NCBI GenBank assembly: GCA_964343875.1
Contig: CAYFJW010000002.1
Location: 6,797 to 70,796 of the forward strand
DNA from: Candidatus Woesearchaeota archaeon
Lineage (GTDB): Archaea; Nanobdellota; Nanobdellia; SCGC-AAA011-G17; UBA489
Length of the DNA stretch: 64,000 nt
Reading direction: 5' to 3'
In this document: piece by piece, positions 12,092-41,000 of the stretch
Position numbering within the stretch: position 1 is the first letter of the stretch
Layout of the letters: every line of letters starts with the position of its first letter
The notes under the pieces: model-generated
What the model was told of the DNA's origin: nothing
Databases searched by the model: none
What the model saw: the letters and a program-made list of their open reading frames with translations, nothing else
Position numbers and translations under genes: made by a program

Positions 12092-14236
12092 ATGGAAGCG
12101 AAAGTGACCAAGATAAGAAAAAGGGACGGAAGAATTGTAGACTTCGACCTAAATAAAATTACAGAGGCAATATTCAAGGCTGCACAGGCAGTTGGGGGAG
12201 AAGACAAAGAGCTAGCAGAGTCCATAGCTAAAAGAGTCACTTCCAAAATAGAAGAAAAGTTCGATAATAAAACACCGACAGTTGAAGAAATCCAAGATCA
12301 AGTTGAAAAAACCTTAATGGATGAAGGACATAATAAAACTGCAAAGACCTATATTTTATACAGATATAAAAGATCACAAGAAAGAGCAAAGAGAGCACTA
12401 ATTCTTGGTGAAGGTCATGAAGAAGATAACTTAAAGTTCTCAAATAATTCCTTACAAGTATTGGAAAGAAGATACCTCCTAAAAGACAAAGAGGGAACGC
12501 TAATTGAAACTCCAAAACAAATGGTTAGGAGAATTGCACACAACATCTCACAGGCAGAATACAATTATGGTGCAAACGAACAAGAAGCACACGAAATAGA
12601 AGAGTCGTTTTATAATCTGATAGCAAACCTAGACTTCCTACCAAATACACCCACCATTATGAATGCAGGAACAAGACTGCAACAACTAAGCGCTTGTTTT
12701 GTACTTCCAGTAGAAGATTCAATGGAAGGCATATTCAAGTCCGTAATGGACACAGCCTTAATTCACAAATCAGGAGGCGGAACAGGCTTCTCATTCGCAA
12801 GACTTAGACCAGCAAATGACTTAGTTAGATCTACTTCAGGCGTAGCTTCGGGCCCAGTTTCATTCATGAAGGTGTTTGATGCGGCTACAGAAGTAATCAA
12901 ACAAGGCGGAAAGAGGCGTGGAGCAAACATGGGCATACTGCGTGTAGATCACCCAGATATTATGGAATTTGTTGAATGCAAGGCAGACATGAAAACACTA
13001 CAAAATTTCAACATCTCAGTTGCAGCAACTGACAAATTTATGCAAGCTGTAAAGGACGATACAGACTATGAAATAATGAACCCCAAGGATAAAAAAGTAG
13101 TTGGAAAACTAAAAGCAAGGGACGTTTTCACAGTTATTATTAACAACGCTTGGAAAAACGGAGACCCCGGTTTTATTTTCATAGATAAAATTAACAGAGA
13201 ACATCCTGGGAAAAACGTAGGTGAAATAGAGAGCACAAATCCCTGTGGGGAACAACCACTACTCCCATATGAGTCATGTAACCTAGGTTCCATAAACTTA
13301 AACAACTTCATCAATGATGATAAAACAGACGTTGACTGGGATAAATTAAGAGAATGCATCAGACTATCAACAAGATTCCTTGATGATGTAATTGACATGA
13401 ACAAATATCCAATACCCGAACTAAAAGAGATGGCAAACAAAACAAGGAAGATAGGTTTAGGGATAATGGGCTTTGCAGATTTATTGTATGAGCTAGGTAT
13501 TAAATACAACTCAGAAGAAGGTTATGCAATTGCTGAAAAGATTATGAAATTCTTCCAAGAAGAGTCATACAAGATGTCAGGCGAACTTGCAGAAACAAGA
13601 GGAACATACCCCGCATGGGAGGGATCAGACCACCATAAAGTAGGCAGAAAGATGAGAAACACCTGTTGCATCACAATAGCTCCGACAGGGACCATAAGCA
13701 TGATTGCAGAGGCTTCTGGAGGGTGTGAACCAACATTCGCAATTTCATACATAAAGAATGTTATGGATGGAACTGAATTAATTTACACAAACAGAATCTT
13801 TGAGAGGGTTGCAAAAGAACGTGGATTTGATTCACCTGATTTAATGAGGAAAATTGCAAAGATTGGAACAATTCAAGATATTGGAGAAGTTCCAAAAGAT
13901 GTGAGAGATGTTTTTGTGACGGCACAAGATTTAACTCCGGAAGAACATGTTAAAATGCAAGCAGCATTCCAAAAATATGTTGATTCATCAATCTCTAAAA
14001 CAATTAATTTCCCAAACTCAGCAACAATAGAAGATGTAAAAAACTCCTACTTGACTGCATGGGAGCTAGGTTGCAAAGGAATAACAATCTACAGAGACGG
14101 AAGTAGAGACAATCAAGTATTAAACATTGGTGAAGTTAACAAAGAAAAATCTCCAGAACCAGAAGCCAAAGCTGAAGATGGATCCGCTTGTAAGATCACC
14201 ATTGAAGATGGAAGAATAGTTAAAACCTGTGAATAA
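12092..14236 (+). CDS. nrdJ: class II (adenosylcobalamin-dependent) ribonucleotide reductase with N-terminal ATP cone
   Basis: ATP-cone (KIRKRDGRIVDFDLNKI), LDFLPNTPTIMNAG, NPCGEQPL catalytic motif, 714 aa. Confidence 0.85.
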   Translation: MEAKVTKIRKRDGRIVDFDLNKITEAIFKAAQAVGGEDKELAESIAKRVTSKIEEKFDNKTPTVEEIQDQVEKTLMDEGHNKTAKTYILYRYKRSQERAKRALILGEGHEEDNLKFSNNSLQVLERRYLLKDKEGTLIETPKQMVRRIAHNISQAEYNYGANEQEAHEIEESFYNLIANLDFLPNTPTIMNAGTRLQQLSACFVLPVEDSMEGIFKSVMDTALIHKSGGGTGFSFARLRPANDLVRSTSGVASGPVSFMKVFDAATEVIKQGGKRRGANMGILRVDHPDIMEFVECKADMKTLQNFNISVAATDKFMQAVKDDTDYEIMNPKDKKVVGKLKARDVFTVIINNAWKNGDPGFIFIDKINREHPGKNVGEIESTNPCGEQPLLPYESCNLGSINLNNFINDDKTDVDWDKLRECIRLSTRFLDDVIDMNKYPIPELKEMANKTRKIGLGIMGFADLLYELGIKYNSEEGYAIAEKIMKFFQEESYKMSGELAETRGTYPAWEGSDHHKVGRKMRNTCCITIAPTGTISMIAEASGGCEPTFAISYIKNVMDGTELIYTNRIFERVAKERGFDSPDLMRKIAKIGTIQDIGEVPKDVRDVFVTAQDLTPEEHVKMQAAFQKYVDSSISKTINFPNSATIEDVKNSYLTAWELGCKGITIYRDGSRDNQVLNIGEVNKEKSPEPEAKAEDGSACKITIEDGRIVKTCE

Positions 14237-14717: not shown

Positions 14718-16757
14718 ATGGACACGATACCTAATTTCAATAGAATAAAAAAAAGAGATGGAACTATTGTAGATTATGATTTTAAAAAGCTACCCAAGGC
14801 AATTCTAAAAGCAGCAAGAGCTGTTGGAAAAAGAAAGAAAGAATTAGCAAATGAATTAGCCGAAAAAGTAATCCAAGAGTTAAATAAAACTTTCAATAAA
14901 AAGGACATTCCTGGAGTTGAAGACTTCCAAGATGCAATCGAAAAGATATTAATTGAAGAAGGACATGCAAAGATTGCAAAAGCGTTTATCCTTTATAGGA
15001 ATTCAAAAACAAAACTAAGAGAAGAAAAGGCATCCCTCGTCGGAAGCAAAGAAAAAAACAAACTCTCAATTAATGCAATAAGACTACTAAAGGCAAGATA
15101 CTTACTAAAGGATTCAGATGGAAGCATAATAGAAACACCTAATGAAATGTTCAGACGTGTTGCAAAAAACATTGCATCTGCAGATAAAAACTATAAGGGT
15201 GGAAACCAAAAGAAATCAGAGGAAGAATTTTATAAAATTATGTTCAACTTAGACTTCCTACCAAACACACCCGCTTTGATGAATGCAGGAACAAAAATAC
15301 AACAATTAGTATCATGCTACGTACTCCCTGTAGATGATAGTCTAGATGGCATATTTAAAACACTAAATTTAGCAATGAATATACAAAAAACAGGAGCTGG
15401 AACAGGGTTCTCCTTCTCAAATCTAAGACAAAGAAGAGCAAAGATAAGTAAAAATGGTTGTTCTTCAAGTGGACCAGTACCGTTTATCAAAGTTTTTAAC
15501 GAAGCAACAGGAGCACTAAAGAAAGGCGGTACTAGGCGTGGCGCCAACATGGGAATACTAAGAGTTGACCATCCAGACATTCTAAAGTTCATCAGTCTAA
15601 AGGCATCAGAAGTTAACATGACTAATTTTAACATTTCAATTGGCGTAACAAATGAATTCATGGAAGCTGTGCAAAAACATGAAGACTGGGAATTAAAAGA
15701 TCCAAGAACAAAAGAAAAAGTTTCAACTTTAGATGCAAGATTCATATGGGATTCATTAATCGCATCAGCATGGACAAATGGAGAACCAGGAATTATCTTC
15801 CTAGACAGAATAAACAAAGATAACAAGTCAAGACAGGAAAACATAACAGCAACAAGTCCTTGTGCAGAAGTTCCAATGTTAAGCAATGAATCATGTATGA
15901 TTGGAAGTATTAACGTAGGCAACTTCGTAATTGAATCAGAAGATAAAAAAGTAGACTGGAAATTATTAAGAGAAACAATTCACACGGCAGTCCACTTCTT
16001 AGATAATGCAATAGAACTAAACAACTACCCATCAAAAGATATCAAAGAGAAGTCTCTAGCATATAGAAAGATAGGCTTAGGAGTAATGGGATTTGCAAAC
16101 ATGCTAGCAAAACTAAGGATTCCTTACGACTCAGAAAAAGGAGTTGAGATGGGTAAAAAACTAGCTAAATTCCTTAGAAAAGAAGCAGATAACGCCTCAC
16201 ACGAACTAGCAAAGAAACGGGGTTCGTACCCCCAATGGAAATTAGCAAAGAACGCATCTAAAAGAAAGATGAGAAATGCAACTAGGCTAAGCGTCGCTCC
16301 AACAGGCTCAATTAGCATGATCGCAGACTGTTCTGCCGGTATTGAACCATTATTCGCAATAAGTTATGTAAAAAGAGTAATGGGCGGCAAACAATTCTTT
16401 TACATTGATGGCAATCTTAAAGATGCTTTAAAGGAGAATAAAATCTATAAAGAAGAAATCATAGATAGGATTGTAAATAGAAATTCAATTAGAAGGATAA
16501 AGGATATTCCTCTTAAAATAAGAAAAGTATTCACAGTTGCACATGATATTGCACCGGAATGGCACATAAATATGCAAGCAGCATTCCAAGAATCAATTGA
16601 TAACGCAATATCAAAGACAGTTAACTTTCCAAATCACACAACAATGAAAGACATCGAAAAGGTTTACCTCCACGCATGGAAGAGTAATTGCAAGGGAATA
16701 ACAATATACAGGGATGGAAGCAGAAGTAATCAAGTTGTACAATCAAATTCTATGTAA
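14718..16757 (+). CDS. nrdJ: class II ribonucleotide reductase paralog with ATP cone
   Basis: ATP cone (KKRDGTIVDYDFKKL), LDFLPNTPALMNAG, SPCAEVPM variant of the catalytic motif; ~50% identity to upstream copy. Confidence 0.85.
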   Translation: MDTIPNFNRIKKRDGTIVDYDFKKLPKAILKAARAVGKRKKELANELAEKVIQELNKTFNKKDIPGVEDFQDAIEKILIEEGHAKIAKAFILYRNSKTKLREEKASLVGSKEKNKLSINAIRLLKARYLLKDSDGSIIETPNEMFRRVAKNIASADKNYKGGNQKKSEEEFYKIMFNLDFLPNTPALMNAGTKIQQLVSCYVLPVDDSLDGIFKTLNLAMNIQKTGAGTGFSFSNLRQRRAKISKNGCSSSGPVPFIKVFNEATGALKKGGTRRGANMGILRVDHPDILKFISLKASEVNMTNFNISIGVTNEFMEAVQKHEDWELKDPRTKEKVSTLDARFIWDSLIASAWTNGEPGIIFLDRINKDNKSRQENITATSPCAEVPMLSNESCMIGSINVGNFVIESEDKKVDWKLLRETIHTAVHFLDNAIELNNYPSKDIKEKSLAYRKIGLGVMGFANMLAKLRIPYDSEKGVEMGKKLAKFLRKEADNASHELAKKRGSYPQWKLAKNASKRKMRNATRLSVAPTGSISMIADCSAGIEPLFAISYVKRVMGGKQFFYIDGNLKDALKENKIYKEEIIDRIVNRNSIRRIKDIPLKIRKVFTVAHDIAPEWHINMQAAFQESIDNAISKTVNFPNHTTMKDIEKVYLHAWKSNCKGITIYRDGSRSNQVVQSNSM

Positions 16758-21242: not shown

Positions 21243-21629
21243 ATGCAAAAACCCTACATCCCCAAGGAACACAGATTCCATTATTACTGCAATGAAGCAT
21301 TTCACTTCGTAAGAGACAGATTTATACCATTTGAAAGACTAAAAAACTCATTCAGATTCAATAAAACCCTTGCTTTTGGGCTAGGGGCGCTAGCAACTTT
21401 TGCAACACTTTCTGGAGTAGATGGAGTACTTGAATTACTAAACAGTCCGGTAACATTAGAGACAGTTGCATCTGAAGCAGCAACACTCGCAATAGGTGCA
21501 CCAATAGCGGCAGAAGTAGTAATGCATCAACAAATGAATGAAATGAGAGGAATATCTCCAAGGTATGCCATGGGCCTCTATGGTTTAGCCACGGGAATTG
21601 CAGCAAGATCTTTAGCAGAATTTATCTAA
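21243..21629 (+). CDS. hypothetical protein
   Basis: ORF only. Confidence 0.3.
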   Translation: MQKPYIPKEHRFHYYCNEAFHFVRDRFIPFERLKNSFRFNKTLAFGLGALATFATLSGVDGVLELLNSPVTLETVASEAATLAIGAPIAAEVVMHQQMNEMRGISPRYAMGLYGLATGIAARSLAEFI

Positions 21630-22192
21630 GGTAAGTACTCATATCTTAAAACAGCCTTATTTGTTCTAAGTTTATACCAAGCCAGCAAGGAAAGAACAGC
21701 CCCCACAGCCCCCACGAAGAAGGATAGCAAGGCAAGATTAAATATCTCTCCAATTACACTCACAGCTAAACTAGAAGATAGAATTAAACCAGTAGAAAAA
21801 GGTATGCTCGCAGCACTAAAGCCTGTACCAAGGATAATATCTAACTGCACACTTCTGATTTTCAACTTAAAAATAACAAAAACTAACTCAAAAACAATTC
21901 CTGCAATCAACAGCATCCATATTTTATTTATTTGTGTAATGCCTAGATCATTTACCCCAAACATCAAAAAACCACCAATCACATAAAACAATGTAGCGGA
22001 ACCAGCCTTTCTAACCAGGTGAACTGTAAAAGACACCAAAAAAGTAGCAATCAATAAAGAAACAATATAGGCTGATTGAGGAGTAAAAACAACATTAAGA
22101 ATATATCCAATAATGGCCCAGATTGCAGCGATAAATATTATTATTCCTATATCCAACATCCTAAACTTCTTAAAACTCTCAATTGCAATCAT
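21626..22192 (-). CDS. polytopic membrane protein, unknown function
   Basis: 5-6 predicted TM helices; no family motif. Confidence 0.45.
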   Translation of the reverse strand: MIAIESFKKFRMLDIGIIIFIAAIWAIIGYILNVVFTPQSAYIVSLLIATFLVSFTVHLVRKAGSATLFYVIGGFLMFGVNDLGITQINKIWMLLIAGIVFELVFVIFKLKIRSVQLDIILGTGFSAASIPFSTGLILSSSLAVSVIGEIFNLALLSFFVGAVGAVLSLLAWYKLRTNKAVLRYEYLP

Positions 22193-23235
22193 CTCTTAAA
22201 CTCCAATATCTTTCTTTTCTCAACTTTATCTTTTATCTCTTCACCATTAACAATTGCCTTAAGAACCGGCAACTTATGTTTAATTTCATTAATCCTTCGC
22301 CTATATCTCTTTTCCTTAATCTTGTAAGTAGACTCACTTATTTTTTTATCTTTAAAACAATCTGATTGAGCCTTCTTCATTAATTTATTCAGAGTTTCTA
22401 GCTCAAGGTTCATTTTATTTATTTGGTTCTTAGAACTTTCAATTCTCCACATTTTAGCCAAAGGTCTATAAAGTAGACTCAAAATAAGAATAACAAGTAA
22501 TATCTTCCACCAATGTTTTTCTAAGAAACTCTTACTTAAATTCGCTAATCCACCTACACGCCTAACCTCTGCCCTAATTGAACCTAACTCAATTTCGGCT
22601 AATTCTATTTCACTAACAGCTTCAGAATATCTTTCCTCTTCTACCGCAAGCCTAACCATCTCTATTGCATCATCCACGCTACTAACGTCCACATCCTTTA
22701 ACAGGGCTTTTTCTTCCTCTAAAATAACCACATAGTCTAGAATATCATAAGCCTGCCCACGTATGAATGAGATTTCCTGGGTTAACCTAATAGTTTCTGA
22801 TAGATTCATTCTTTCAATTTCATAAGGAGGAGTATTCCTTGCAACATCCAAAAGACCTTCCAAATATTCTTTATCTCTCTGACCTTTAGCCCTTTCAACA
22901 AAATCATTAAACAACGTCATGTTATGTCCAATAAAATATCTCTTGGCAATTAATAATTTATCATTAACCAAATTGATAGACAAGCCAGAACTTTTCATAT
23001 CTTCAATTTCTTTTTCAGAATTTATTAGGGCAGATAAAACAACCTCTTCATCTAAAAAATCCGGCTCAATATAGGTAAAGTTATCTGACAAAGACCCATA
23101 CTGTTTAAAAGACCCACTATGAGCTGAAGATTTATCTCCTAAAAAAGAACCACCACTATTAAAGAAAAGAGCAACAACTAAAATAAAGATTAATATGCCG
23201 GCGGAATAAATAAACTTTTTATTTTTCATCTTCAT
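22189..23235 (-). CDS. membrane-anchored coiled-coil protein
   Basis: N-terminal TM FIYSAGILIFILVVALFF, second TM near C-terminus, coiled-coil rich. Confidence 0.45.
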   Translation of the reverse strand: MKMKNKKFIYSAGILIFILVVALFFNSGGSFLGDKSSAHSGSFKQYGSLSDNFTYIEPDFLDEEVVLSALINSEKEIEDMKSSGLSINLVNDKLLIAKRYFIGHNMTLFNDFVERAKGQRDKEYLEGLLDVARNTPPYEIERMNLSETIRLTQEISFIRGQAYDILDYVVILEEEKALLKDVDVSSVDDAIEMVRLAVEEERYSEAVSEIELAEIELGSIRAEVRRVGGLANLSKSFLEKHWWKILLVILILSLLYRPLAKMWRIESSKNQINKMNLELETLNKLMKKAQSDCFKDKKISESTYKIKEKRYRRRINEIKHKLPVLKAIVNGEEIKDKVEKRKILEFKR

Positions 23236-23956
23236 TATCCAAATCTAATCCATGCTCCTCCTTCAACATTTTATAAACATCTTCCCTCTTTTTCTTAATC
23301 TTTTCATCCTGGAGTAAATATTTTTCCTTTCCTCTCCTTCCCACAGGTTTGTTTTTTATGGGCGTCTTTTGATCTTCCTTTTTCTTAGGTATTATGGCTT
23401 TTGCCCGCCCAGCACCATCTTTCTTAATTCCTGTTGGAGTTTTCTTTATTGGTTCCCTTACAACAGAGCTCTCCCTCCTCCAAGGTCTCTCAAATGGTTT
23501 GTCCTTTGTTTTCCCCTTATACTCATCATTCCTCTTTTCTTCCTTTCCTTTTTTAACAACCAGTTCTTTTTTAGATTCCTTCCATTTCTCTTTATCAAGA
23601 TCTTTTATTTTGAACCTCTCTATCAGCCTTCTGAAGATGTTTCCAATAATTATTGAAACTTCATTGACCTTATTTAAGAATTTATACTTCTTACCAACTT
23701 TTTCAACCTCAAGTTTTTCAGTTAGAAGTTCAATTTGTTCTTCTATTTCAGATATATGTTCTTTATCTTTTTCATATTTGTCAGTAAACTGTGCCTTAGT
23801 TATAACTCCCTTTTCTAAATATTCAGTTTGCAGACCCTTCATCATATCCACAACTTCCTCCTCCTCCTTTTTTAAATTATCAATCTCCTGTTCAGTCTTA
23901 ATCAATCCAACTTTTTTATTTCTTAGTTTGGATTTAATCTGCTGTATTTTGTTCAA
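23219..23956 (-). CDS. Lys/Glu-rich coiled-coil protein
   Basis: Highly charged low-complexity; the ORF-track start is TTG, true start possibly at an internal ATG. Confidence 0.35.
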   Translation of the reverse strand: MNKIQQIKSKLRNKKVGLIKTEQEIDNLKKEEEEVVDMMKGLQTEYLEKGVITKAQFTDKYEKDKEHISEIEEQIELLTEKLEVEKVGKKYKFLNKVNEVSIIIGNIFRRLIERFKIKDLDKEKWKESKKELVVKKGKEEKRNDEYKGKTKDKPFERPWRRESSVVREPIKKTPTGIKKDGAGRAKAIIPKKKEDQKTPIKNKPVGRRGKEKYLLQDEKIKKKREDVYKMLKEEHGLDLDNEDEK

Positions 23957-23989
23957 CCTTGATTCATATTGTCCTAAAGAACTGTGATA

Positions 23990-24529
23990 CTATGCAGAAG
24001 AGATTGTGCCTTCCTTCAGATGTTTATACTGTACATCTTTAATTAACGAGTTCAATGAAACCTCCTCTTTAGATAGATCCCTCATCCGCTGATTAATGAT
24101 TGCTACTATAAATTGCTTATACAACAAGAATGAAGCTATACTAAGTAAGATCAAACTAGTTATTATTGCCCACCAGTACTCACCGAGGAACCAAAGAATG
24201 TTTATTTTTCCCTTAGTTTCTAGAATGTAAATAAGTTGAGCTTCCTTTGCCCTTTCCAATGATTCCTTAAAATCTTCCCTCTCAAATGCCTTAACAGCCA
24301 GATTTAATGCAATTTCTGTATCTTCAACAAATAGCCGTTTTTCTTTTGCGCCAGATATCCAATTATTAGTCTCCTCAATTAAGCGATTAGCTTCAAAAGC
24401 CATCTCCCCCTCATCAATGACCTGCTCAGCAAGAGTCCACGCCACTCCGAAATCTTCTGATTCAAAGGCATTTTCTGCCTCGGATATCCAAGCCTGAAGC
24501 TTGGTAACAGGGAATTCAGCAACCTTCAT
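23990..24529 (-). CDS. C-terminal TM-anchor module, probably the C-terminus of the giant surface protein
   Basis: Single TM WWAIITSLILLSIASFLLY plus cytoplasmic tail; its frame is open upstream and joins segment 3 if the A7 run at 24562-24568 is read as A6. Confidence 0.45.
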   Translation of the reverse strand: MKVAEFPVTKLQAWISEAENAFESEDFGVAWTLAEQVIDEGEMAFEANRLIEETNNWISGAKEKRLFVEDTEIALNLAVKAFEREDFKESLERAKEAQLIYILETKGKINILWFLGEYWWAIITSLILLSIASFLLYKQFIVAIINQRMRDLSKEEVSLNSLIKDVQYKHLKEGTISSA

Positions 24530-24545
24530 TTCCCTAATAATCTCC

Positions 24546-26342
24546 TTAGCCTCGTCTATCTTTTTTTGTGCATCTTCCGGAGATAGATATTTTGATTACC
24601 TTAAATAGAAAAGTCCTAAACTCAGTTAATGGCCTATAATCAAATCCTGCCAACCTTGTATTAAATGGAATAATTTTTGCCTTAATTGCTACAGTTAGGT
24701 TATAGTCCTCTTCACTTATATAAGAAGGAGCAAAAATATTAAGCATATATTGCCTTTCTTCTCTGTACTGCACCTTGTCATGTGAGGGATTGCCTAATTT
24801 ATAAACATTAAAGTCTGCTTCACCATTATACACATCCTTGAACTCTACAGCAACATCATTCTTCCCATCCAAATCTAAATCAACCTCTTGTGTTTCACCA
24901 ATACCAACTGTAACCACAACCGGCTCAGAATAAAAGGTAAATGTTGCTTGATTTAAATTTACATCCACAACTTCAACAGTGTGAGCTCCCAAATTTTTCA
25001 AGGCCAAGGTTGTCTGTCCATCGGTAGGACCCTTCTTTAAATTAACAGAGTCAACATAAACTTTATCCTGATATGCCTTAACTTCTTGAACAGTTACATA
25101 TTGAGACATAAATCCCTGAACTTCTAATTCAATATCCGTAAAGTAAGAATGTTCATAGAAGTTGCTCACAACAACCGGAATTTCAGCATCACTTCCCCTA
25201 ACAACAGTATAAACTTCAGTAGTTCTTATTGTTTCTCCCGTTCCAACCCTATCTACAGTACCTCCGCCTCCGCCTGCGCCGCCCCCACTAGAAGGACTAC
25301 TACTCCCGCTTCCAGAACCACCCCCGCTCCCAGAGCCTAAATTAGCCTGCCCATTTACATCTATACTATAACTATTTGCGAAGAAGAGACCCAAATCCTG
25401 GAGATCATCTCCCGTGTTATTGACACCGGTACCATTTATCAAAACATCTTGGCTTCCCGTTGAAGCACTAGATGGAACATCTACCTGGATAACGTTCTCA
25501 ACCTCTTCCCCAGATAACAACTCAGAATATGTAATGTTTGAACTTCCAAAGGTTACAACCCAGTCGCTTGGAAGATCATAATAAAAAGTTCCATTATATG
25601 CATCACCTTCACCTATGTTTTCTAACTTAGCAACCATTTCAACGCCGCTAGCCCCAACAGTTATATTGGAAGGAATAGTAGTGATCGTAGCAACAAGAAC
25701 AGGCTGACCAGCTGCAACTACTAAGTTAACCGTAGTGTTTCTCTGATCTGGAGAGGTATCATTAGTACTATTGATCATAACCGTGAATGCAGTGGTACCT
25801 GCACTATCTGTTGAAGCATTCACATTCAAGGTATAATTCTCACCAGATGGAACATTTGCATTCAGTGTGTCATTATCAAAATATGTCGTACTAAGAGTTG
25901 AAGTTATTGTAAAATTAAGGTTATAGTCTCCAGTATTTTGAATTGTTATATTCCCCACAGAAACGTTTTCACTTAAATTTGCAAACACTGCAGAATAGGA
26001 ACTTGGTGTCCTTGTCCAAGTTTTGTCTGTAGCGATCACAAGAGTTGTATTTGCACTAAAATCTGAATTTCCAGAACTATCATTTGCCCAAAGCCTAAGT
26101 GTATAGGTTGTGTTCCCTACAGCAGTGAAGGAGGCATTATAAATTGCGCTAGAGTTAACCACCATAGTTGTATTTGTAAAATTAGAATCCGTTGTGTTCA
26201 TATATTGCAGTATAACTGTATCAACCCCAGTTAGACTATCTGTTACATTTGCAGTAACGTTAATCACAGTTCCAGGATCTAAATCATCCACAGTACTTGG
26301 ATCAGTATCAAGATATACAAACACAACATCTGTAAGATCCAC
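24546..26342 (-). CDS. surface protein segment 3 (N-glycosylation-sequon-rich, Gly/Ser linker)
   Basis: Dozens of N-x-S/T sequons, GSGSGGGSGSGSSSPSSGGGAGGGGG linker; same frame as segment 2, separated only by a TGA. Confidence 0.55.
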   Translation of the reverse strand: MDLTDVVFVYLDTDPSTVDDLDPGTVINVTANVTDSLTGVDTVILQYMNTTDSNFTNTTMVVNSSAIYNASFTAVGNTTYTLRLWANDSSGNSDFSANTTLVIATDKTWTRTPSSYSAVFANLSENVSVGNITIQNTGDYNLNFTITSTLSTTYFDNDTLNANVPSGENYTLNVNASTDSAGTTAFTVMINSTNDTSPDQRNTTVNLVVAAGQPVLVATITTIPSNITVGASGVEMVAKLENIGEGDAYNGTFYYDLPSDWVVTFGSSNITYSELLSGEEVENVIQVDVPSSASTGSQDVLINGTGVNNTGDDLQDLGLFFANSYSIDVNGQANLGSGSGGGSGSGSSSPSSGGGAGGGGGTVDRVGTGETIRTTEVYTVVRGSDAEIPVVVSNFYEHSYFTDIELEVQGFMSQYVTVQEVKAYQDKVYVDSVNLKKGPTDGQTTLALKNLGAHTVEVVDVNLNQATFTFYSEPVVVTVGIGETQEVDLDLDGKNDVAVEFKDVYNGEADFNVYKLGNPSHDKVQYREERQYMLNIFAPSYISEEDYNLTVAIKAKIIPFNTRLAGFDYRPLTEFRTFLFKVIKISISGRCTKKDRRG

Positions 26343-26498
26343 CTTAAAATTCTTATTAGAACTAGTATTTGTGTTAGGATTATCGTCATTACATTGTACT
26401 CCCCAAGTATGGGCACCTTCAGATATCCCAGCTTTTGTAAAAGTAGTGTAGGTTGCATTGCTAACTGCCCCATTGGTTTGATCTATGATATCATCTAT

Positions 26499-28655
26499 TC
26501 ATAAAGAACAATTAATACTTGTATCAAAATTATCCTCAACACTAAAGTTAAAATCTACAGATGCAGAACTGCTATTTAATTCATCAGCAGTATGTAAGAA
26601 CCATTTAGGAAATGTTACATCACTCACAGTAAAGTTAGTGCTATCGTTCTTTTCATTACTGCTTGTATCATTTGCTCCCCAACTAACGTTGTACAACCCT
26701 GTTTTTTGAGCAGTGTCAGTGAATGTAAATGAATAATTGGAACTCACATTAGTAACTGTTTGAATAAGAACTGTTCCATTAGGCATAGTTACATTTGCAG
26801 TAACAGTATGGACGCCAATATCATCGGCCACATTAGAACTACAAAGAATAGATTGGGTTAAATTAGCACTAGACGGGCTACATAGCATACTGGTGATGGT
26901 TAAAGTGTTGACCGTACTAACGGTGAAATTACTGACCCCTGTATTATTTACATTATTAGACGTATCATTAGCAAATATGGTAATATTATAACTCCCCGTA
27001 AGGGCTGGAGATATAAAGGATGCATTATACTTATCTCCCGAAGTAGAACCCAAAACTAGTTCATTTATTGTTCCATTAGGATAAGATAAATTAGCAATCA
27101 CCACATCCACACTTAAATCATCCGTAACATTTGCAGCTATTTCTATGGCGTCACTCACATTAAAGTCCGTGTTTATTACTGGAACTATATTGGTCACATT
27201 AGGGGTAACAACATCATTTATGGTAAAGTTACTTGTCTCTGAGTTGTTAACATTGTTCCCGGTGTCATTTGCAAAGAAAGTAATATTATAATTTCCTATC
27301 AAATAAGGCAATATAAAAGATGTATTATACTTATCTCCCGAAGTAGAACCCAAAACTAGTTCATTTATTGTTCCATTAGGATAAGATAAATTAGCAATCA
27401 CCACATCCACAGCACTATCGTCTGTAACATTTACAGTTACTTCTGTAGTATTACTAATATTGAATACTGTGTTTATGGATGGGGAAAAATTGCTCACTGC
27501 CGGGTTGTTTGAATCAACTACCGAAAACGTCGTAGTTTCAGAGCTGTTAATGTTTTTATGAGTGCTGGTATCATTTGCAATTATAGTAACCGTGTACAAT
27601 CCAAGTGATCCCGTTTGACTATAGGAGAGATTATAATTATCATCTCCATTTTCATCGGTCAAGACTATTTGTTCAATAGTGCTATTTGGCAATGTTATAT
27701 TGGCAAGAACAGAACCAACTGCAATATTATCAACAACGGTTGCGTTTATACTTATTATTTCAGATGTAGAGAATGAACTCCCATTTACACCAACAGATGT
27801 TACATTTGGAACAGGGTCATACCTAAACCAATCAAACATTACACCTTCTTGAGCTCCATTGGTAACTTCAGTAGTACTCTCAAGAAGAGAAACCGACGGA
27901 GTAATAATTTCTGTTCCATTCCAATAAATTGTTGTAACATCTTCAGCAATATCCATAGCAACAATCATAACTTCTTGTGTGGTCGGATGTTCAGTAAACC
28001 TCAAACTCTTAATATCGTTTGTAGCAAAATTGCTAGTTGTAGATGTACTTGTCAAATCAGAGGTACTCCATGTATTTGCCTTTGAGAACTCAACCCAATC
28101 CATGGATAATGCATCCCGATCCACAAAACCGAAGATAGCATTAGTTGAATTTACCCATGCACAATCTGAGTTTGCATTATTTGCTCCATTATTCTCGGTT
28201 CCACCATCTTGACTCGGTGCCCCAGCTAATATTGACGATCCATCCCATACCCTAACATTAATATCTCTACCAGAATCGTGCACAATTATTCCAATATAGT
28301 CCGAAGTTGGCTCAGAACACATTCTAACGGTATCTAGATTATGGGCCCCCATTGTAATAGTATTTTCTGTACTTCCAAAGCCACCAACAGGATCATATGT
28401 TCTATACACAAAGTCAGTCCCTTCACTATAGGCTACAAGCCCTTGTCCACTAGACTCCTCCCATGCAAACGCAAAATGCTCTTCTGTAATTGATGTAGTC
28501 CCAGCAGACAGTTCAATATCCAATGAAGGAAGAAAGTCAGTCCCATTCCAAGGAATTGCATACAAATCATTTAAATTATTATGAACAAGCAACATAATGT
28601 CATCCGATCCAATATTCTCAACTAATGAAATCCAATGAACCTCTCCACTAGCCAA
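26499..28655 (-). CDS. surface protein segment 2 with tandem duplicated domain
   Basis: Sequon-rich; internal ~105-aa tandem repeat (VDVVIANLSYPNGTINELVLGSTSGDKYN...); same frame as segments 1 and 3. Confidence 0.55.
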   Translation of the reverse strand: MASGEVHWISLVENIGSDDIMLLVHNNLNDLYAIPWNGTDFLPSLDIELSAGTTSITEEHFAFAWEESSGQGLVAYSEGTDFVYRTYDPVGGFGSTENTITMGAHNLDTVRMCSEPTSDYIGIIVHDSGRDINVRVWDGSSILAGAPSQDGGTENNGANNANSDCAWVNSTNAIFGFVDRDALSMDWVEFSKANTWSTSDLTSTSTTSNFATNDIKSLRFTEHPTTQEVMIVAMDIAEDVTTIYWNGTEIITPSVSLLESTTEVTNGAQEGVMFDWFRYDPVPNVTSVGVNGSSFSTSEIISINATVVDNIAVGSVLANITLPNSTIEQIVLTDENGDDNYNLSYSQTGSLGLYTVTIIANDTSTHKNINSSETTTFSVVDSNNPAVSNFSPSINTVFNISNTTEVTVNVTDDSAVDVVIANLSYPNGTINELVLGSTSGDKYNTSFILPYLIGNYNITFFANDTGNNVNNSETSNFTINDVVTPNVTNIVPVINTDFNVSDAIEIAANVTDDLSVDVVIANLSYPNGTINELVLGSTSGDKYNASFISPALTGSYNITIFANDTSNNVNNTGVSNFTVSTVNTLTITSMLCSPSSANLTQSILCSSNVADDIGVHTVTANVTMPNGTVLIQTVTNVSSNYSFTFTDTAQKTGLYNVSWGANDTSSNEKNDSTNFTVSDVTFPKWFLHTADELNSSSASVDFNFSVEDNFDTSINCSL
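27003..27420. repeat. near-identical ~100-bp direct repeat pair inside the surface protein gene (tandem domain duplication)
   Basis: 27003-27120 and 27303-27420 share ...ttatacttatctcccgaagtagaacccaaaactagttcatttattgttccattaggataagataaattagcaatcaccacatccaca... almost base for base. Confidence 0.7.
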
Positions 28656-28775
28656 TAAAGTTGTTAGATTAGTCTCAGCACTATAGCTAGTGCCATCCCA
28701 CGTTCTATAGCCAATTATACTATCAGCAGCATCACTATTTTCATAAACAATTAATGCATCTCCAGAAAGATCTTC

Positions 28776-30164
28776 TTAAGCTATGTCAAAGCCCCGGTAT
28801 GCAGAATTTTCAGCAGTAGCAGTAACTTCTTGTAAATTCCCCCATGTAGAAGAATCAAATACTTGGACATTAATATCATTCCCCTTATCATACGTACCCA
28901 ATATGATCTCATTCCTCTCATGATTACCCTTAACAACGGCCCAAGTTATATCGTTAACAGTATCCGTTCCCACTGATTGAGCACTTGATTCAGCTTCAAA
29001 ATCATTTGTGTCATTCCATTTCCTATACCTCGGCGTAGCAACATTGGCCTCCCCATAACTAATAATCCCGTCCGCATGTGTAGAATTAATTACATCATCA
29101 TGTATGAAGTCAAACTCTAAGAAAGCAGTTCTGTTGTGATGATATATCGGAGAGTCACAACTTTCTTCAACCCAACCATAACAACCCTCATAAGGATCCT
29201 CATCACATGATAAATAACCTTCATCCAAACATTGTGTGTACTCCTCTAAAGGAGAATTAACCCTCAATACCTTGAAATCAAACACATCTGTTGGCCCAGT
29301 TAATCCTGTAACAGGTATAAATTGCACCTCGGGATAATCTATTACCCCCGACTTTCCAACTAAATGCGTTGTTCCTTCTTCATAAATCTCAAAATAAGTT
29401 AAAGTACCATTACTTCTTGCAAGAATGTCAATCATCCTTCCATCAGTTAGATTTTCTACAAATGTAACACGGACATATTCATCAGTATAAATTGCTTCAG
29501 ACCAATTAGCATCAACAGCCTTGATTTCATCAAAAATATTATTAATAAATCCATAGGTCTCATTCAAATGAACAGCATCACTTACATTAATTTCTCCAAA
29601 TCCAGGATCGTGAGGAGTTAACTCAAATGAATACTCTTCTCCAGGAATAATATCCTGTAAGAACTTCCATTCCCCATAACAAGCTTGCTCCTCAAAATTC
29701 CAATCCTTACATTTGTATAGCGCAGTACCCTTCGCCGTGGCAGTTACAGTTGCATTAGTGAACGGAACTTCTTCGGGATCAATAGCATAAACTTCAACGA
29801 ATTCAACTTCTTCAATCTTCTCTTCAGGTACATCATCCACACCCAAAACAACAGTTTTTTCACTAACATTTAAATCTTCAAATATAATTGTCTCAACAGG
29901 ACCATCATCCATTTCAACAACTACCTTGTGTTCTCCTTCTTCAACAATTTCAATCGTAGGCAAATCAGAGTCTATAACAGCAATCACATCCTCTGTTTCA
30001 CCCTCTAAAATTTCTGCGACGAATTCCACATCTTCCCCATTACTGTCATTAATTTCAATATCAACAATAACTTCATCCGATATAGGAACTTCACCTTCAG
30101 CAAGAACAAAAATAGCTAGCAAAGAGATTACAATTGTCACAAGAAGCAATAATCTCTTATTCAT
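28776..30164 (-). CDS. surface protein segment 1 (signal peptide and N-terminal domain)
   Basis: Signal peptide MNKRLLLLVTIVISLLAIFVLAEG; ends at TAA but the frame continues coherently into segment 2. Confidence 0.6.
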   Translation of the reverse strand: MNKRLLLLVTIVISLLAIFVLAEGEVPISDEVIVDIEINDSNGEDVEFVAEILEGETEDVIAVIDSDLPTIEIVEEGEHKVVVEMDDGPVETIIFEDLNVSEKTVVLGVDDVPEEKIEEVEFVEVYAIDPEEVPFTNATVTATAKGTALYKCKDWNFEEQACYGEWKFLQDIIPGEEYSFELTPHDPGFGEINVSDAVHLNETYGFINNIFDEIKAVDANWSEAIYTDEYVRVTFVENLTDGRMIDILARSNGTLTYFEIYEEGTTHLVGKSGVIDYPEVQFIPVTGLTGPTDVFDFKVLRVNSPLEEYTQCLDEGYLSCDEDPYEGCYGWVEESCDSPIYHHNRTAFLEFDFIHDDVINSTHADGIISYGEANVATPRYRKWNDTNDFEAESSAQSVGTDTVNDITWAVVKGNHERNEIILGTYDKGNDINVQVFDSSTWGNLQEVTATAENSAYRGFDIA

Positions 30165-30304
30165 TTTTTCCCTTCCCCCACAATAAATTTGTCAATAGCA
30201 GTCTCAACAGCATGAGAGACATTCCTATATTTCTTAGAACTAAGGAGTTTTTTCAGATTCCTTACAGTAGACTCATCTAATGTAACAGAAATCCTCTCTT
30301 TCAT
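30161..30304 (-). CDS. ribbon-helix-helix (CopG/Arc-like) DNA-binding protein
   Basis: 47-aa ORF MKERISVTLDESTVRNLKKLLSSKKYRNVSHAVETAIDKFIVGEGKK (too short for the ORF track); its TGA overlaps the ATG of the surface protein gene. Confidence 0.45.
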   Translation of the reverse strand: MKERISVTLDESTVRNLKKLLSSKKYRNVSHAVETAIDKFIVGEGKK

Positions 30305-30406
30305 TAAAGAATACAACATAAATAATACTTTATAAGACTTTCTATTATTAAAGAATATTAAATAAAATCAAATCATATAAAGTATTACGTTAAAAACAAC
30401 AAAAAA

Positions 30407-30949
30407 TCACTCTGTTAGATCAATTACACTATCGCACAAAGGAGCCAGTTCCCCAATTAATCCCTTATCAGTTTTATCATCCAATAAAACAATAACACCC
30501 ACTAAATCATGCTCCCTCATTTTTTCTATAAGGAACCTAGCAAACCTAATTACGGTCTTCTCACTATGGTAAACCGACAATGCATTCAATGAGTCCAATA
30601 ACACAAATTCATGCTGCTTAATTTTATAAATTGGTTCTAAACAAATGCCTATGTGTGTTAAACTTTCTAAACTCCTTAAGAACACACAGTTGTCCGCTTT
30701 CTGTTCTTTCGCAGTAACACAATCAACGAATAATAGATTATCAGGATTTACTCCCTTTGTCTTCATTAATTTACTAACAACCTTATATGGGCTGTTCATA
30801 GAAAGATATGCCCCATCCATTTTATTTTTTTTGACAAGGATTTTAATTATATCCATCATTATTTCTTTATATCCCCTACTAGGAAGGATAACCAGAGAAA
30901 CATAATCCTCATCTACCCCTTCCAACGCATCCTTAAGCTCTTTTTTCAT
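30407..30949 (-). CDS. degenerate RecA/KaiC-fold protein (no Walker A), partner of the KaiC-like ATPase
   Basis: RecA-like beta-strand pattern (FVLLDSLNAL, GVIVLLDD) but no P-loop; start overlaps the stop of the upstream ATPase gene. Confidence 0.4.
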   Translation of the reverse strand: MKKELKDALEGVDEDYVSLVILPSRGYKEIMMDIIKILVKKNKMDGAYLSMNSPYKVVSKLMKTKGVNPDNLLFVDCVTAKEQKADNCVFLRSLESLTHIGICLEPIYKIKQHEFVLLDSLNALSVYHSEKTVIRFARFLIEKMREHDLVGVIVLLDDKTDKGLIGELAPLCDSVIDLTE

Positions 30950-32121
30950 TAGTCGATTCCTCCAAAGACTTCTTGATCGGGGTAAACTGTGATCCCGTCA
31001 TCTGTAATCTGCATAGCAACAATTTTCTTATCGTGTTTAGCACCTCTCAGCTTTAAAACTTCTATGGCGTTCTCTCTTATATTTCCGCGTTTAATATTAT
31101 ATAAAACAATAACACCATCTGCAAGAAACTCTTCAACACCACTAGTACTAAAAATCTTAGGTATTTGCTCAGTTTCAGTAATCATAAAGGCTGTAGTAGA
31201 TATCTTTTCAAAGAATCTAAAAAGTTGCTCAATATAAATTCTATAACTATCTTCCTTTCCAGTAAAAGCAGAAGCAATTGCAGTTAATGAATCAACAATT
31301 ACAATATCTGGCTGAAAGTCAGAAGGGAATATAATTGGTTCAATATCAATCAAAAGCTCACCCTTAGACTTCATCAATAAAGCATCAACGCTCCTAGTAA
31401 TGTCAAAGGGATTAAATCTTTTAATTGCTAAGTTATTTTTTTTAATCAACTCATGCGGATTCCATCCAAAATCCTCCATATGTTGAATTAATCTTTCTTC
31501 AGACTCCTCAAAACTCATATACAAGCATTTCTTGCCTTTTTTTGCATGATGATTCAACATTTGCAAGCTTAGAATTGTTTTACCACTTCCCGCACCGCCT
31601 GCAAGAAGTATTGTAGATCCCTTTGGAACACCATCAAAGAATAAAGCATCAAAACCAGGAACACCGGTCTCAATAAAACCCTCCTTTGTTTTTTTACCAC
31701 TAATCTCTCCGACAGTTCTAGAGATTTCTTTACTCTCTGTAATCACCTTCGCTTCATGTTTTTTGATATTACCTGCTTTGATATGGCTTTCAATATCTTT
31801 TTTTATTTTAGAAAGATCAATTTTCTTTAAGTCAGAAATTTTACCTTCGCCTTTCTTTATATCTTCCTTTTCAATTTTCCTAACTTCTACATGGGGTCTG
31901 GATTTTTCCTTTCTATCTTTCGTCCAGTAATGAACCTTTGCCATATTGATCTTCCTAACATTAACATCACCCTTTCCAACCAATGCATGCAGCCTCGCAA
32001 GAACAGTGTGCCTAGCAAGCTTAGTACGCTTCATAACCTCTGCTATGGTCAAACCTTCAGAATGACTTTTTAGGAGATTCTCAATTTTATACCGGTGTTT
32101 GTCCTTTTCTCGCTTTGTCAT
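30949..32121 (-). CDS. wHTH-KaiC-like (RecA superfamily) ATPase
   Basis: N-terminal winged-helix (LTIAEVMKRTKLARHTVLARLHALVGKGDV), K/E-rich linker, KaiC/RadA-like domain with Walker A GGAGSGKT and Walker B VIVDSL. Confidence 0.7.
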   Translation of the reverse strand: MTKREKDKHRYKIENLLKSHSEGLTIAEVMKRTKLARHTVLARLHALVGKGDVNVRKINMAKVHYWTKDRKEKSRPHVEVRKIEKEDIKKGEGKISDLKKIDLSKIKKDIESHIKAGNIKKHEAKVITESKEISRTVGEISGKKTKEGFIETGVPGFDALFFDGVPKGSTILLAGGAGSGKTILSLQMLNHHAKKGKKCLYMSFEESEERLIQHMEDFGWNPHELIKKNNLAIKRFNPFDITRSVDALLMKSKGELLIDIEPIIFPSDFQPDIVIVDSLTAIASAFTGKEDSYRIYIEQLFRFFEKISTTAFMITETEQIPKIFSTSGVEEFLADGVIVLYNIKRGNIRENAIEVLKLRGAKHDKKIVAMQITDDGITVYPDQEVFGGID

Positions 32122-37995: not shown

Positions 37996-38355
37996 ATGGA
38001 GAGAACACCAATCCACCATTATGAGGATCTTAGAACAGACGGCCTCGTAGGCCAAGAAACTAGACCACAACAAGTAAACCGCTTCAAACAGACTTCTTTT
38101 ATAGTTCCAGGAGATTCTAGGACTATCTTTAGTTTGAGGGCGCACAACCTAGGCATATTAACACATGCTTTGTCTAAAATTTTAAGAGTGACTGAGAATA
38201 AAGGGCACTTAATAGACCCTAATAATGGCCCAGAAATGATGGATGCAATCGAGACAGGAAGACTAAGCAATGACTATGATGTAGTGGTTTTGGATGCTGA
38301 AAGTCCAGACCTAGTTGCTAAGTTCAGGGAAGCATATCGTCCAAATTCAGTATAG
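37996..38355 (+). CDS. hypothetical protein
   Basis: ORF only. Confidence 0.3.
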   Translation: MERTPIHHYEDLRTDGLVGQETRPQQVNRFKQTSFIVPGDSRTIFSLRAHNLGILTHALSKILRVTENKGHLIDPNNGPEMMDAIETGRLSNDYDVVVLDAESPDLVAKFREAYRPNSV

Positions 38356-38392
38356 GGTTAACCTTAAAAACAAGTCCTTTAGAGAGTTCTCT

Positions 38393-38872
38393 ATGAAAAA
38401 CCTAAAGGAAAACTACTCAAAACTAGCAAGCCAGTTTGGCTTACCTTCATTTGAAGAGCTAGACAAAGACTTCGAATTGCTATACGTAAGAGAACTATTT
38501 GAAATAAGTAGACCTTTAGTTTTCATTAGAAGAAGAATCTGTGATAAGATTGGATGGACTTGTGGAATGCTACAAGGATTGATCCAACCAAATCCAGGAT
38601 CAATGTTAAGTATAGAAGAATCCTCATTCTTTTCAAAAGAAGAAAAACAAGACAACTTCGTTAAACTTCTAAAAGGATTGATGTACTACACTAGAAAATC
38701 AATCTACTTAGACATGGAATCAACAAATGAGGAAGAAGCAGAATTCATTAAGGAAGCATACAATAAGTGGCTTGAAACAAAACCAAAAATAAAGAAAATA
38801 TCTCAACAGCTAAAAGAAGGCTGGAAGAAGGAAAAAGAATCAAATAAAGAAACTAATAGCCACTTAGGATAA
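38393..38872 (+). CDS. hypothetical protein upstream of pilus locus
   Basis: ORF only; start trimmed to MKNLKEN to remove overlap. Confidence 0.3.
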   Translation: MKNLKENYSKLASQFGLPSFEELDKDFELLYVRELFEISRPLVFIRRRICDKIGWTCGMLQGLIQPNPGSMLSIEESSFFSKEEKQDNFVKLLKGLMYYTRKSIYLDMESTNEEEAEFIKEAYNKWLETKPKIKKISQQLKEGWKKEKESNKETNSHLG

Positions 38873-38902
38873 TTTAATAAGTGATTTGTATTCTATAATC
38901 TC

Positions 38903-39514
38903 ATGAAAAAGGGGCAGGTGTACATTCTATCAGTCTTAATCATAGGGTTTTTATTATTTACAATAATAACCCCTGCAAACTTCATTCACCAAAGAGTCAT
39001 AGACGATGATTTTGAAGAACTATCAAAAAACTACCAATTAGAAAGTTCCAAGCTACTAAACGAATTATTAAATAAAGAAGGAACAGATGAAGCTGTAATT
39101 GACAACACCTTCCTTAACTTCACGGTATCTTTCACATCTTACTCCAAAACAAAGAACCCAAACTTCGGTTTAATCTACGCATTCCCTTATAATGAAAAAG
39201 TTTTCATTGGAAATTATGCCGATGTTCCAATTACATTTCAAACAAGAAGCACAACACAAACTTATTTGGATGGTTGTTTTAGCAAAGTGGACACCTCAGT
39301 TTCATTATACGGAATAAGTATTTCAGTCCCAGACATAAATCCCATCCTATACACTAGCTGCATATCAAGAATTAATTATCCGTCCGATGGAATCATCAAC
39401 TTCACAATTGAAGATATCAACTACAACTTCCAACTGCAAGAAAGAAGATCAGATATCATAATAGTCAGCAGAGAAGACCTAAAAGAAGATATTAAGGTGT
39501 TCATAAGCGAATAA
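38903..39514 (+). CDS. prepilin-like protein with class III signal peptide
   Basis: MKKGQ-VYILSVLIIGFLLFTII N-terminus (basic, Gly, then hydrophobic helix). Confidence 0.5.
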   Translation: MKKGQVYILSVLIIGFLLFTIITPANFIHQRVIDDDFEELSKNYQLESSKLLNELLNKEGTDEAVIDNTFLNFTVSFTSYSKTKNPNFGLIYAFPYNEKVFIGNYADVPITFQTRSTTQTYLDGCFSKVDTSVSLYGISISVPDINPILYTSCISRINYPSDGIINFTIEDINYNFQLQERRSDIIIVSREDLKEDIKVFISE

Positions 39515-39543
39515 TTAATAAACAAAAATACAATCAAATTAAA

Positions 39544-39993
39544 GTGCTATTAAACAAAAAAGCAATCACTCCAGCAATAAGCTTTATTCTACTAATTGGA
39601 TTAGCAGTAGCAATGGCCGGCATAGTAACAGTCTGGGTTAAATCCACTGCAGGAACTACTTCTGAAAAGTTAGTAAATAATGTAGACAAGGACATGAGAT
39701 GCACAGACACCTCATTCAATGCATACGAAACAGATGGCTTTACAAAATGTGCAGACGTAACCTTCCATAACCGAGGATTCTTCTCAATTTATGCAATAAA
39801 AGTCAGAACAGATAACAAAGTAGAAGATATTCAATTAACTACACCTTTAGTTCCCCAAGAAATCAGAGCAATAAGCTTAAATATTTCCAACATCCCTTCT
39901 GATAATAAGGTAGGACTTATTCCAATCATAGAAGTCAAGGAAGAGCTCCTCGCATGCATGGCAAAGGAAATATCCATTGAATGCACTCCATAA
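39544..39993 (+). CDS. archaeal type IV pilin-like protein
   Basis: KKAITPAISFILLIGLAVAMAGIV class III signal peptide. Confidence 0.55.
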   Translation: MLLNKKAITPAISFILLIGLAVAMAGIVTVWVKSTAGTTSEKLVNNVDKDMRCTDTSFNAYETDGFTKCADVTFHNRGFFSIYAIKVRTDNKVEDIQLTTPLVPQEIRAISLNISNIPSDNKVGLIPIIEVKEELLACMAKEISIECTP

Positions 39994-40457: not shown

Positions 40458-40496
40458 TAGTTAAGTTTAATAATAGAAAAGAGTGAATAAAAGAAG

Positions 40497-40985: not shown

Positions 40986-41000
40986 TTTTCTTAAATATTC

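Follow-up and report, generated by a model that had tools for sequence, protein, structure and literature searches.

The window analysed here is the whole 64,000-nt stretch of contig CAYFJW010000002.1 (positions 6,797 to 70,796; assembly GCA_964343875.1) from a Candidatus Woesearchaeota archaeon, and it contains on its minus strand a locus that is very probably a genuine, recently inactivated pseudogene of a giant membrane-anchored surface protein. Comparison with an intact ortholog, P0001, demonstrates that the locus is a single gene unit disabled by three in-frame stop codons and one 4-bp duplication, with sense codons in the ortholog at the corresponding sites. An earlier note on this DNA had joined three large open reading frames (ORFs) into one gene broken by two stops, and had left four explanations unseparated: a very recent pseudogene with nonsense mutations only and no indels, base-call errors, locus-specific stop-codon readthrough, and a truncated secreted isoform. 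The first of these is now favoured, with the amendment that the damage also includes a frameshift and a third stop codon. The gene and its lesions are as follows.

23219..30164, minus strand: whole disrupted gene, 2,313 codons after repair, four lesions (delimited by tblastn with P0001 and with the repaired translation)
28776..28778, minus strand: lesion 1, in-frame TAA at codon 463, polymorphic (TAA or TAC), with a C/A difference at 28776 in contigs L001 and L108; Tyr in orthologs
26499..26501, minus strand: lesion 2, in-frame TGA at codon 1222; Arg in P0001, Met in P0002
24581..24588, minus strand: lesion 3, 4-bp tandem duplication ATCT|ATCT (ATCTATCT) causing a frameshift, recognised by ortholog comparison
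23990..23992, minus strand: lesion 4, in-frame TAG at codon 2057 of the repaired frame, in the predicted cytoplasmic tail; Glu in orthologs (SSTEYH, compared with SSA*YH in the window)

The unity of the gene was established from its reading frame and from ortholog alignment. Minus-strand translation of 23990-30164 from the ATG at 30164 yields a single frame of 1,873 codons, in which the TAA of codon 463 and the TGA of codon 1222 are the only internal stops and which terminates with the TAA at 24546-24548. The three large ORFs (28776-30164, 26499-28655, and 24546-26342) share this frame, separated only by the TAA at 28776-28778 and the TGA at 26499-26501, and the junction peptides quoted in the earlier note were reproduced by retranslation. 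The probability that the 92 bridging codons are free of stops by chance was estimated at ~0.001 from the minus-strand base composition (p 0.072 for a random codon to be a stop); this estimate is superseded, as full-length orthologs align straight through both junctions. When P0001 was used as a tblastn query against the window, the alignment crossed every junction, running from 30143 to 24585 in frame -3 and from 24586 to 23225 in frame -1. The size of ~1870 aa proposed previously was therefore too small: the gene continues past 24546 through the frameshift, a 179-aa ORF (23990-24529), the TAG codon, and a 245-aa ORF, and its actual stop codon lies at 23219-23221.

Across the locus, gene callers report products of 462, 718, 598, 179, and 245 aa, and this annotation could be taken at face value as three to five genuinely separate genes. 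Such an arrangement has next to no probability, since P0001 (2,283 aa, 67% identity and 99% query coverage in a protein-database search with the concatenated product) is a single ORF to whose residues the bridging codons align, and the fragments begin in the middle of domains. In addition, the second and third ORFs (26499-28655 and 24546-26342) possess only TTG or GTG starts and have neither a signal peptide nor a Shine-Dalgarno-like motif upstream. Orthologs in the form of three genes with start signals of their own, which the earlier note had named as part of a refutation, were not seen. The "hypothetical proteins" of these five lengths in public records are fragments of a single gene. A scan for promoters and terminators returned chance-level matches only, the models being bacterial and not applicable to an archaeon.

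At each of the stop positions, the related proteins carry an amino acid. Residue 463 is Tyr in P0001, P0002 (2,158 aa, 70% identity to the concatenated product), P0003, and P0112, as well as in the consensus of the wider family. P0003 (1,221 aa) differs from the window product at two positions only, reading Tyr at the first stop and ending at the second, and both P0003 and P0112 terminate at residue 1221. At the third lesion, the ortholog reads KVIKISPENAQKK, compared with KVIKIS-ISGRC... in the window, where (L)SPEDAQKK resumes in another frame; removal of four nucleotides restores the frame and gives KVIKISPEDAQKK, with zero residues gained or lost. The duplicated unit is present in two copies only and is invariant in all assemblies, the three stops are base substitutions, and all four lesions are located outside homopolymers and outside the 300-nt repeat of this gene.

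The maintenance of one frame across TAA 463 and TGA 1222 is also what programmed recoding would leave, i.e., stop-codon readthrough, insertion of selenocysteine or pyrrolysine, or an alternative genetic code that yields a full-length protein. This explanation is very unlikely for the present locus, because it would require the decoding of TAA, TGA, and TAG together with a frameshift over a 4-nt insertion, whereas the orthologs show sense codons and no conserved stops at these sites and a conspecific allele has TAC at the first of them. Each of the three stop codons also serves as a terminator of ordinary genes in the window (TAA 45, TAG 12, and TGA 6 among the terminators of 63 ORFs). Searches of the 64-kb window with Rfam (gathering thresholds) and ARAGORN identified five ordinary tRNAs, with no selenocysteine insertion sequence (SECIS) element and no suppressor, selenocysteine, or pyrrolysine tRNA. 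No in-frame stop was seen in the other genes of the window: the two further pairs of adjacent in-frame ORFs that were checked are separate intact neighbouring genes, and conserved genes, including two ribonucleotide reductases, ABCE1, CTP synthase, an SNF transporter, T2SSE/F, and dihydroorotate (DHO) dehydrogenase, are full length relative to Pfam models.

The distribution of the lesions among public assemblies shows that they are real features of the DNA. The sources comprised MEGAHIT assemblies of several runs from the European Nucleotide Archive (ENA) project PRJEB17505, Logan assemblies, and the NCBI metagenome-assembled genome (MAG) GCA_973416385.1, together with run SRR22722179 from a different project. 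DNA from ERR2281802, ERR2281804, ERR2281805, Logan, and the NCBI MAG shows 100% identity with the window across stretches of up to 16.5 kb, and a 15,755-bp stretch from ERR2281800 has only two base differences, both inside the giant gene and both non-synonymous. The TGA was found in every retrieved stretch that spans its site (ERR2281800, ERR2281801, ERR2281802, and ERR2281804), and the duplication and the TAG are both present wherever their sites are covered (ERR2281800, ERR2281802, ERR2281804, ERR2281805, and the NCBI MAG). Gene-call lengths likewise place the TGA, the duplication, and the TAG in four runs and three assembly sources; the cluster table lists 5, 6, and 6 contigs for the fragments of 598, 179, and 245 aa, respectively, and 14 contigs carrying the 179-aa piece were read separately. 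Thus, three lesions occur in every assembly that covers them, and the TAA is a polymorphism on top of these. The two variable sites, 28776 (the TAA/TAC difference) and the one listed first below, are 808 bp apart, and all four haplotypes occur.

29584, minus strand: second single-nucleotide polymorphism (SNP), codon 194 GTA (Val) or GCA (Ala), from assembly comparison
ERR2281800: codon 194 Ala, codon 463 Tyr
ERR2281801: codon 194 Val, codon 463 Tyr
ERR2281802 (same as the window): codon 194 Val, codon 463 stop
ERR2281804: codon 194 Ala, codon 463 stop
ERR2281805: codon 194 Ala, codon 463 stop
SRR22722179 (other project): codon 194 Val, codon 463 stop
NCBI MAG GCA_973416385.1: codon 194 Val, codon 463 stop

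Misassembly is frequent in giant genes with repeats, and breaks in the 300-nt duplication of this gene are seen in several contigs, which would speak for a sequencing or assembly error as the source of the lesions. Identical lesions were, however, recovered from independent read sets and by three assembly sources (MEGAHIT/ENA, Logan, and NCBI MAG), the TAA allele recurs in a separate project, the lesions lie outside the repeat and outside homopolymers, and the flanking 9 kb are error-free relative to other assemblies. An artefact, including the base-call error that had been listed among the earlier explanations, is accordingly extremely unlikely. Decay is confined to this gene: its neighbours are intact, and the only two SNPs in 15.7 kb both fall within it. 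Hypervariation of the type generated by diversity-generating retroelements (DGR) was rejected without a dedicated test, the population showing two SNPs only, neither of them adenine-specific.

The polymorphism at the TAA/TAC site and the presence of all four two-SNP haplotypes could also point to population heterogeneity or to an on/off switch, in which a rare intact allele exists or the lesions are revertible and the assemblies display the majority "off" state; an apparent +1 A in an A-run that splits the gene of the sister lineage P0002/P0117 would fit such a switch. This possibility is quite improbable. Three lesions are identical in every covering assembly, so that switching on would take three independent reversions, and the lesions show no contingency-type repeat of the kind expected at a phase-variable hypermutable tract: the 4-bp unit has two invariant copies and the stops are point substitutions. 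Moreover, a search of 5.8 billion protein clusters turned up no conspecific protein that is intact.

Comparison with related loci suggests that the inactivation is recent. The genomic neighbourhood of P0001 matches that of the window (KaiC, DUF7504, small ORF, giant gene, 358 aa, 188 aa, 128 aa, and DHO_dh). A scan of GTDB species representatives yielded no conspecific genome, the best matches being 49-54% identical, and the taxonomic placement follows the labels of the homologs (Woesearchaeota, Nanoarchaeota, and Pacearchaeota). Among ~95 homologous loci from JGI metagenomes and GTDB genomes, almost all encode the protein in one uninterrupted frame, and interruption is the exception within this giant-protein family. 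In Tajima relative-rate tests of the window against P0001 and P0002 with five outgroups, no excess of amino-acid change was detected on the window branch (e.g., 123 vs 152 and 140 vs 151 lineage-specific changes; all chi-squared < 3.1). Identity to the orthologs varies by region, from 75-84% in the head and 50-60% in the immunoglobulin (Ig) stalk to 80-88% in the membrane-proximal domain, and this domain-wise profile is the pattern that would be left by purifying selection. Because the rate is not accelerated and domain conservation is preserved, the inactivation appears to be recent relative to the ~33% divergence from the nearest orthologs; the absent signal of relaxed constraint is probably best read as a mark of recent inactivation and not as evidence of function.

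Two further members of the family show irregular frames. In the sister lineage of P0002 (JGI sample 3300072015, 29,489-bp contig), the gene is split near the N-terminus into ORFs of 130 aa (P0117) and 2,158 aa (P0002). P0117 ends with …PEEKNRRS*, the reading expected from one extra base ahead of the IEEV codons, at a site in an A-run; the split, as read from the protein sequences, may be a real independent disruption or, equally, a homopolymer sequencing error. In L033 (Woesearchaeota RIFCSPHIGHO2_01_FULL_49_8), a homologous giant gene encodes its ectodomain in frame 3 and its C-terminal part, helical and transmembrane (TM), in frame 1, with the change at ~11590, which may represent another frameshifted family member or a natural split.

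The repaired translation has the layout expected of a membrane-anchored adhesin with a putative glycan-binding head. All of the features described previously are present (signal peptide, Gly/Ser linker, numerous N-x-S/T sequons, and a domain duplicated in tandem), in support of a secreted, sequon-rich surface protein. The repaired protein contains 84 sequons, all in the predicted ectodomain and 0 in the tail. Its parts, from the N-terminus to the C-terminus, are listed below, with model confidence given as the predicted local distance difference test (pLDDT) score of AlphaFold2.

30096..30164, minus strand: signal peptide MNKRLLLLVTIVISLLAIFVLAEG, with hydrophobic residues in positions 1-19; assigned by inspection, with no dedicated predictor
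29076..30095, minus strand: N-terminal beta-sandwich domains, including the YKCKDW domain; mean pLDDT 87
27813..29075, minus strand: predicted beta-propeller head, residues ~364-784, with repeated W-(D/N)-G blade motifs; pLDDT mostly >90, with Foldseek matches
25344..27812, minus strand: stalk of Ig-like, CARDB-like, and NEW3-like beta-sandwich domains, from weak Pfam matches; includes the 26922-27497 duplication
25260..25343, minus strand: Gly/Ser-rich flexible linker, its lower boundary taken from the start of the next domain (residue 1636) and its upper boundary set by eye
24585..25259, minus strand: membrane-proximal all-beta domain, residues 1636-1860, 80-88% identical to P0001/P0002; pLDDT 89
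24119..24199, minus strand: C-terminal TM helix (…WFLGEYWWAIITSLILLSIASFLLY), from a hydropathy scan and ortholog alignment
23222..24118, minus strand: Lys/Glu-rich predicted cytoplasmic tail of ~300 aa, coiled-coil-like by composition, aligned to the C-termini of P0001/P0002

The YKCKDW domain (residues ~70-300) recurs in dozens of loci at the start of many Woesearchaeota giant proteins, and paralogous N-terminal domains are present in many genes per genome. The AlphaFold2 model of residues 25-884 (mean pLDDT 87) contains the propeller head, for which the top Foldseek matches in the PDB were 6fhx (PHL, TM-score 0.64, target-normalised), 7c38, and 4agi (AFL), with probability 1.0. At 8-14% sequence identity, this likeness to lectins may be a generic resemblance among propellers. 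Searches against Pfam and NCBIfam gave no match for the first ORF and only sub-threshold Ig, CARDB, or NEW3-type matches for the second and third, the weak stalk matches being Big_7, Ig-like_KY, and NPCBM_assoc. The membrane-proximal domain is the best-conserved part of the giant protein; a Foldseek comparison with the PDB returned no convincing match for it (TM-score <=0.39), and a helical segment connects it to the TM helix.

The tandem duplication at 26922-27497 consists of two ~276-nt copies at a spacing of 300 nt that are 77% identical, with a 135-nt core at 91%. It was picked up by a repeat search and blastn, and Tandem Repeats Finder reported nothing within the giant gene. Several public assemblies break within this duplication of Ig domains, as contigs L103, L105, and L106 start at 27104, 27053, and 27111, respectively, and the gene is consequently scattered over separate contigs in the NCBI MAG and other assemblies.

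The position of the stops within this architecture bears on the truncated secreted isoform, according to which an N-terminal product (1,221 aa from the TAC allele or 462 aa from the TAA allele) would be exported as a soluble, lectin-like, unanchored protein. Indeed, the gene is intact in its promoter-proximal part and in its signal peptide, the coding signature is undecayed, and the 1,221-aa product would hold the complete propeller head plus several Ig domains. However, the TAA lies inside a strand of a propeller blade in the AlphaFold2 model, which predicts a misfolded product, and the TGA cuts an Ig-like domain between the paired Cys1219 and Cys1258. Neither stop is placed at a domain boundary, where the end of a designed isoform would be expected. 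Furthermore, no ortholog or member of the largely uninterrupted family terminates where either of the two stops lies, and the segregation of a nonsense allele upstream of another stop is the pattern expected under neutral decay. Taken together, these observations make the isoform rather improbable, and a recent pseudogene remains the preferred explanation.

The genes on both sides of the pseudogene have the same lengths as in the orthologous contigs, and they are listed here in the order of transcription.

30949..32121, minus strand: KaiC-like ATPase, 390 aa (Pfam), conserved upstream neighbour
30407..30949, minus strand: DUF7504 protein, 180 aa (Pfam), conserved upstream neighbour
30161..30319, minus strand: 52-aa ribbon-helix-helix (RHH)-like ORF, overlapping the start of the giant gene (ATGA), with a weak match to the RHH region of NikR
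21626..23235, minus strand: intact downstream genes p348 (22189-23235) and p188, syntenic with genes of 358 and 188 aa in the orthologous contigs

A 47-aa ORF occupies the position of the RHH-like ORF in both orthologous contigs, and the window ORF probably encodes a small regulator co-transcribed with the giant gene; it is likely to be the first gene of the operon. A KaiC homolog (56-72% identity) also adjoins related propeller-headed giant genes in seven other Woesearchaeota/Nanoarchaeia loci (L002, L003, L007, L031, L033, L035, and L079), three of which (L002, L031, and L033) have DUF7504 as well, and this association of KaiC, DUF7504, and giant protein suggests a conserved uncharacterised functional module. 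On the downstream side, p348 begins with a signal/anchor segment at the N-terminus and a helical ectodomain, followed by a TM helix plus coiled coil, a module homologous to the C-terminus of the giant protein (BLASTP E 6e-7), and p188 is a membrane protein with six TM segments. The p348 gene and the end of the giant gene share 17 nt, and premature termination upstream might therefore affect its expression.

Elsewhere in the window, the plus strand carries, in near-tandem at 12092-14236 and 14718-16757, two complete genes for ribonucleotide reductase large subunits (714 and 679 aa). Both contain ATP-cone, Ribonuc_red_lgN, and lgC domains, and a 145-aa ORF that has no Pfam match is situated between them. 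In addition, the plus-strand region 38000-44653 contains a series of small ORFs (119-203 aa), after which come genes for a T2SSE-type ATPase (41618-43204) and for a T2SSF-type membrane protein (43379-44653), and is probably a type IV pilus or archaellum-like locus.

The events at the giant gene can be reconstructed tentatively. The ancestral gene would have belonged to an operon with the RHH regulator, the KaiC-like ATPase, the DUF7504 protein, and the two membrane proteins, and its product of ~2,313 aa would have consisted of a Sec-pathway signal peptide, the propeller head, the Ig stalk, a hinge, the membrane anchor, and the coiled-coil tail. Translation would now stop at codon 463 in the TAA allele or at codon 1222 in the TAC allele, releasing at best an unanchored N-terminal fragment, and the stalk, anchor, and tail would not be made. 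Since the anchor would never be produced, surface display and attachment are presumably lost. At least six read sets contain this organism with a broken copy of the gene, which implies that the protein is dispensable in the sampled population, and a dispensable gene argues against an essential S-layer.

Several points weigh against a fully inactivated gene. The secreted fragment of 462 or 1,221 aa may retain residual function. Most of the assemblies come from the single project PRJEB17505; their read sets are independent, but the same population was sampled. The lesions are known from assemblies only, and a minor intact allele may exist in the population; no intact conspecific allele that would date the lesions was found. 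The four SNP haplotypes could reflect either recombination or chimeras of assembler consensus.

A different view of the same pseudogene holds that the loss is adaptive and recurrent instead of neutral, with a KaiC/DUF7504-linked giant surface protein, which has a lectin-like head and is conserved across Woesearchaeota, being knocked out independently in co-existing lineages. Under this view, the three shared lesions and the segregating nonsense allele described here would stand beside the N-terminal frameshift in the P0002 lineage and an anchor perhaps in a shifted frame in L033, and the driver might be a cost that the protein imposes, e.g., by serving as a virus receptor or by determining host specificity after a host switch. 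Adaptive loss is considered unlikely, although, if true, it would turn the locus into a natural experiment on the function of DPANN attachment proteins.

The main value of these observations is a correction, as a seemingly possible case of stop-codon readthrough very probably turns out to be an ordinary recent pseudogene with four lesions. The locus also captures the ongoing decay of a gene in a DPANN population, in the form of three shared lesions and one segregating nonsense allele, and suggests that a large attachment-type protein is dispensable, at least in the sampled habitat. In addition, it defines the architecture and the conserved operon of an uncharacterised Woesearchaeota surface-protein family, for which the intact orthologs offer a route for study.

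Ordinary prokaryotic pseudogenes formed by nonsense and frameshift mutations are known from surface and adhesin genes in host-associated reduced genomes (general background, PMC11078800); a literature search on Woesearchaeota pseudogenes returned nothing usable. The present locus resembles such pseudogenes in having several independent disabling mutations, intact neighbours, a coding signature that is still visible, and a further lesion that is segregating. It differs from them in belonging to an uncultured DPANN archaeon, in its early stage with a polymorphic fourth lesion, and in having a sister lineage that was perhaps hit independently.

With regard to the intact protein, the nanohaloarchaeal SPEARE proteins SVXNc_0300 and BNXNv_0298 (8,900-9,400 aa), which contain an ectodomain of >8,000 aa with a VirB4/TraG-like ATPase domain and lie next to a VirB4-like ATPase gene (PMC10266531), resemble it in their Sec signal peptide, in a very large ectodomain rich in Ig-like domains, in their anchoring to the membrane, in a proposed contact with hosts or surfaces, and in neighbouring ATPase genes. 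In contrast, the protein described here is 4-fold smaller (~2,300 aa), has a lectin-like propeller head and KaiC-like/DUF7504 neighbours instead of VirB4-like ones, and Pfam and NCBIfam scans of the giant-gene fragments found no VirB4/TraG-like ATPase domain. The likeness is one of general design only, and no sequence homology is claimed. Similarly, the fucose lectins PHL (6fhx, from Photorhabdus asymbiotica) and AAL/AFL (4agi) have the same propeller fold and Trp-containing blade motifs as the head in the structural model, whereas the latter is 8-14% identical to them and would form one domain of an anchored multi-domain protein, not a free lectin.

Common to archaeal S-layer glycoproteins and the protein described here are a signal peptide, numerous sequons, an ectodomain of acidic character, and a TM anchor at the C-terminus, and the earlier note had suggested an S-layer or adhesin-type protein. 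The adhesin half of that proposal gains support as an anchored adhesin; the S-layer half is disfavoured by the persistence of the organism with a broken, dispensable gene, by the lectin-like head, and by the long cytoplasmic coiled-coil tail (~300 aa). The many paralogous N-terminal domains per genome in this family are also more typical of adhesin families than of S-layer proteins.

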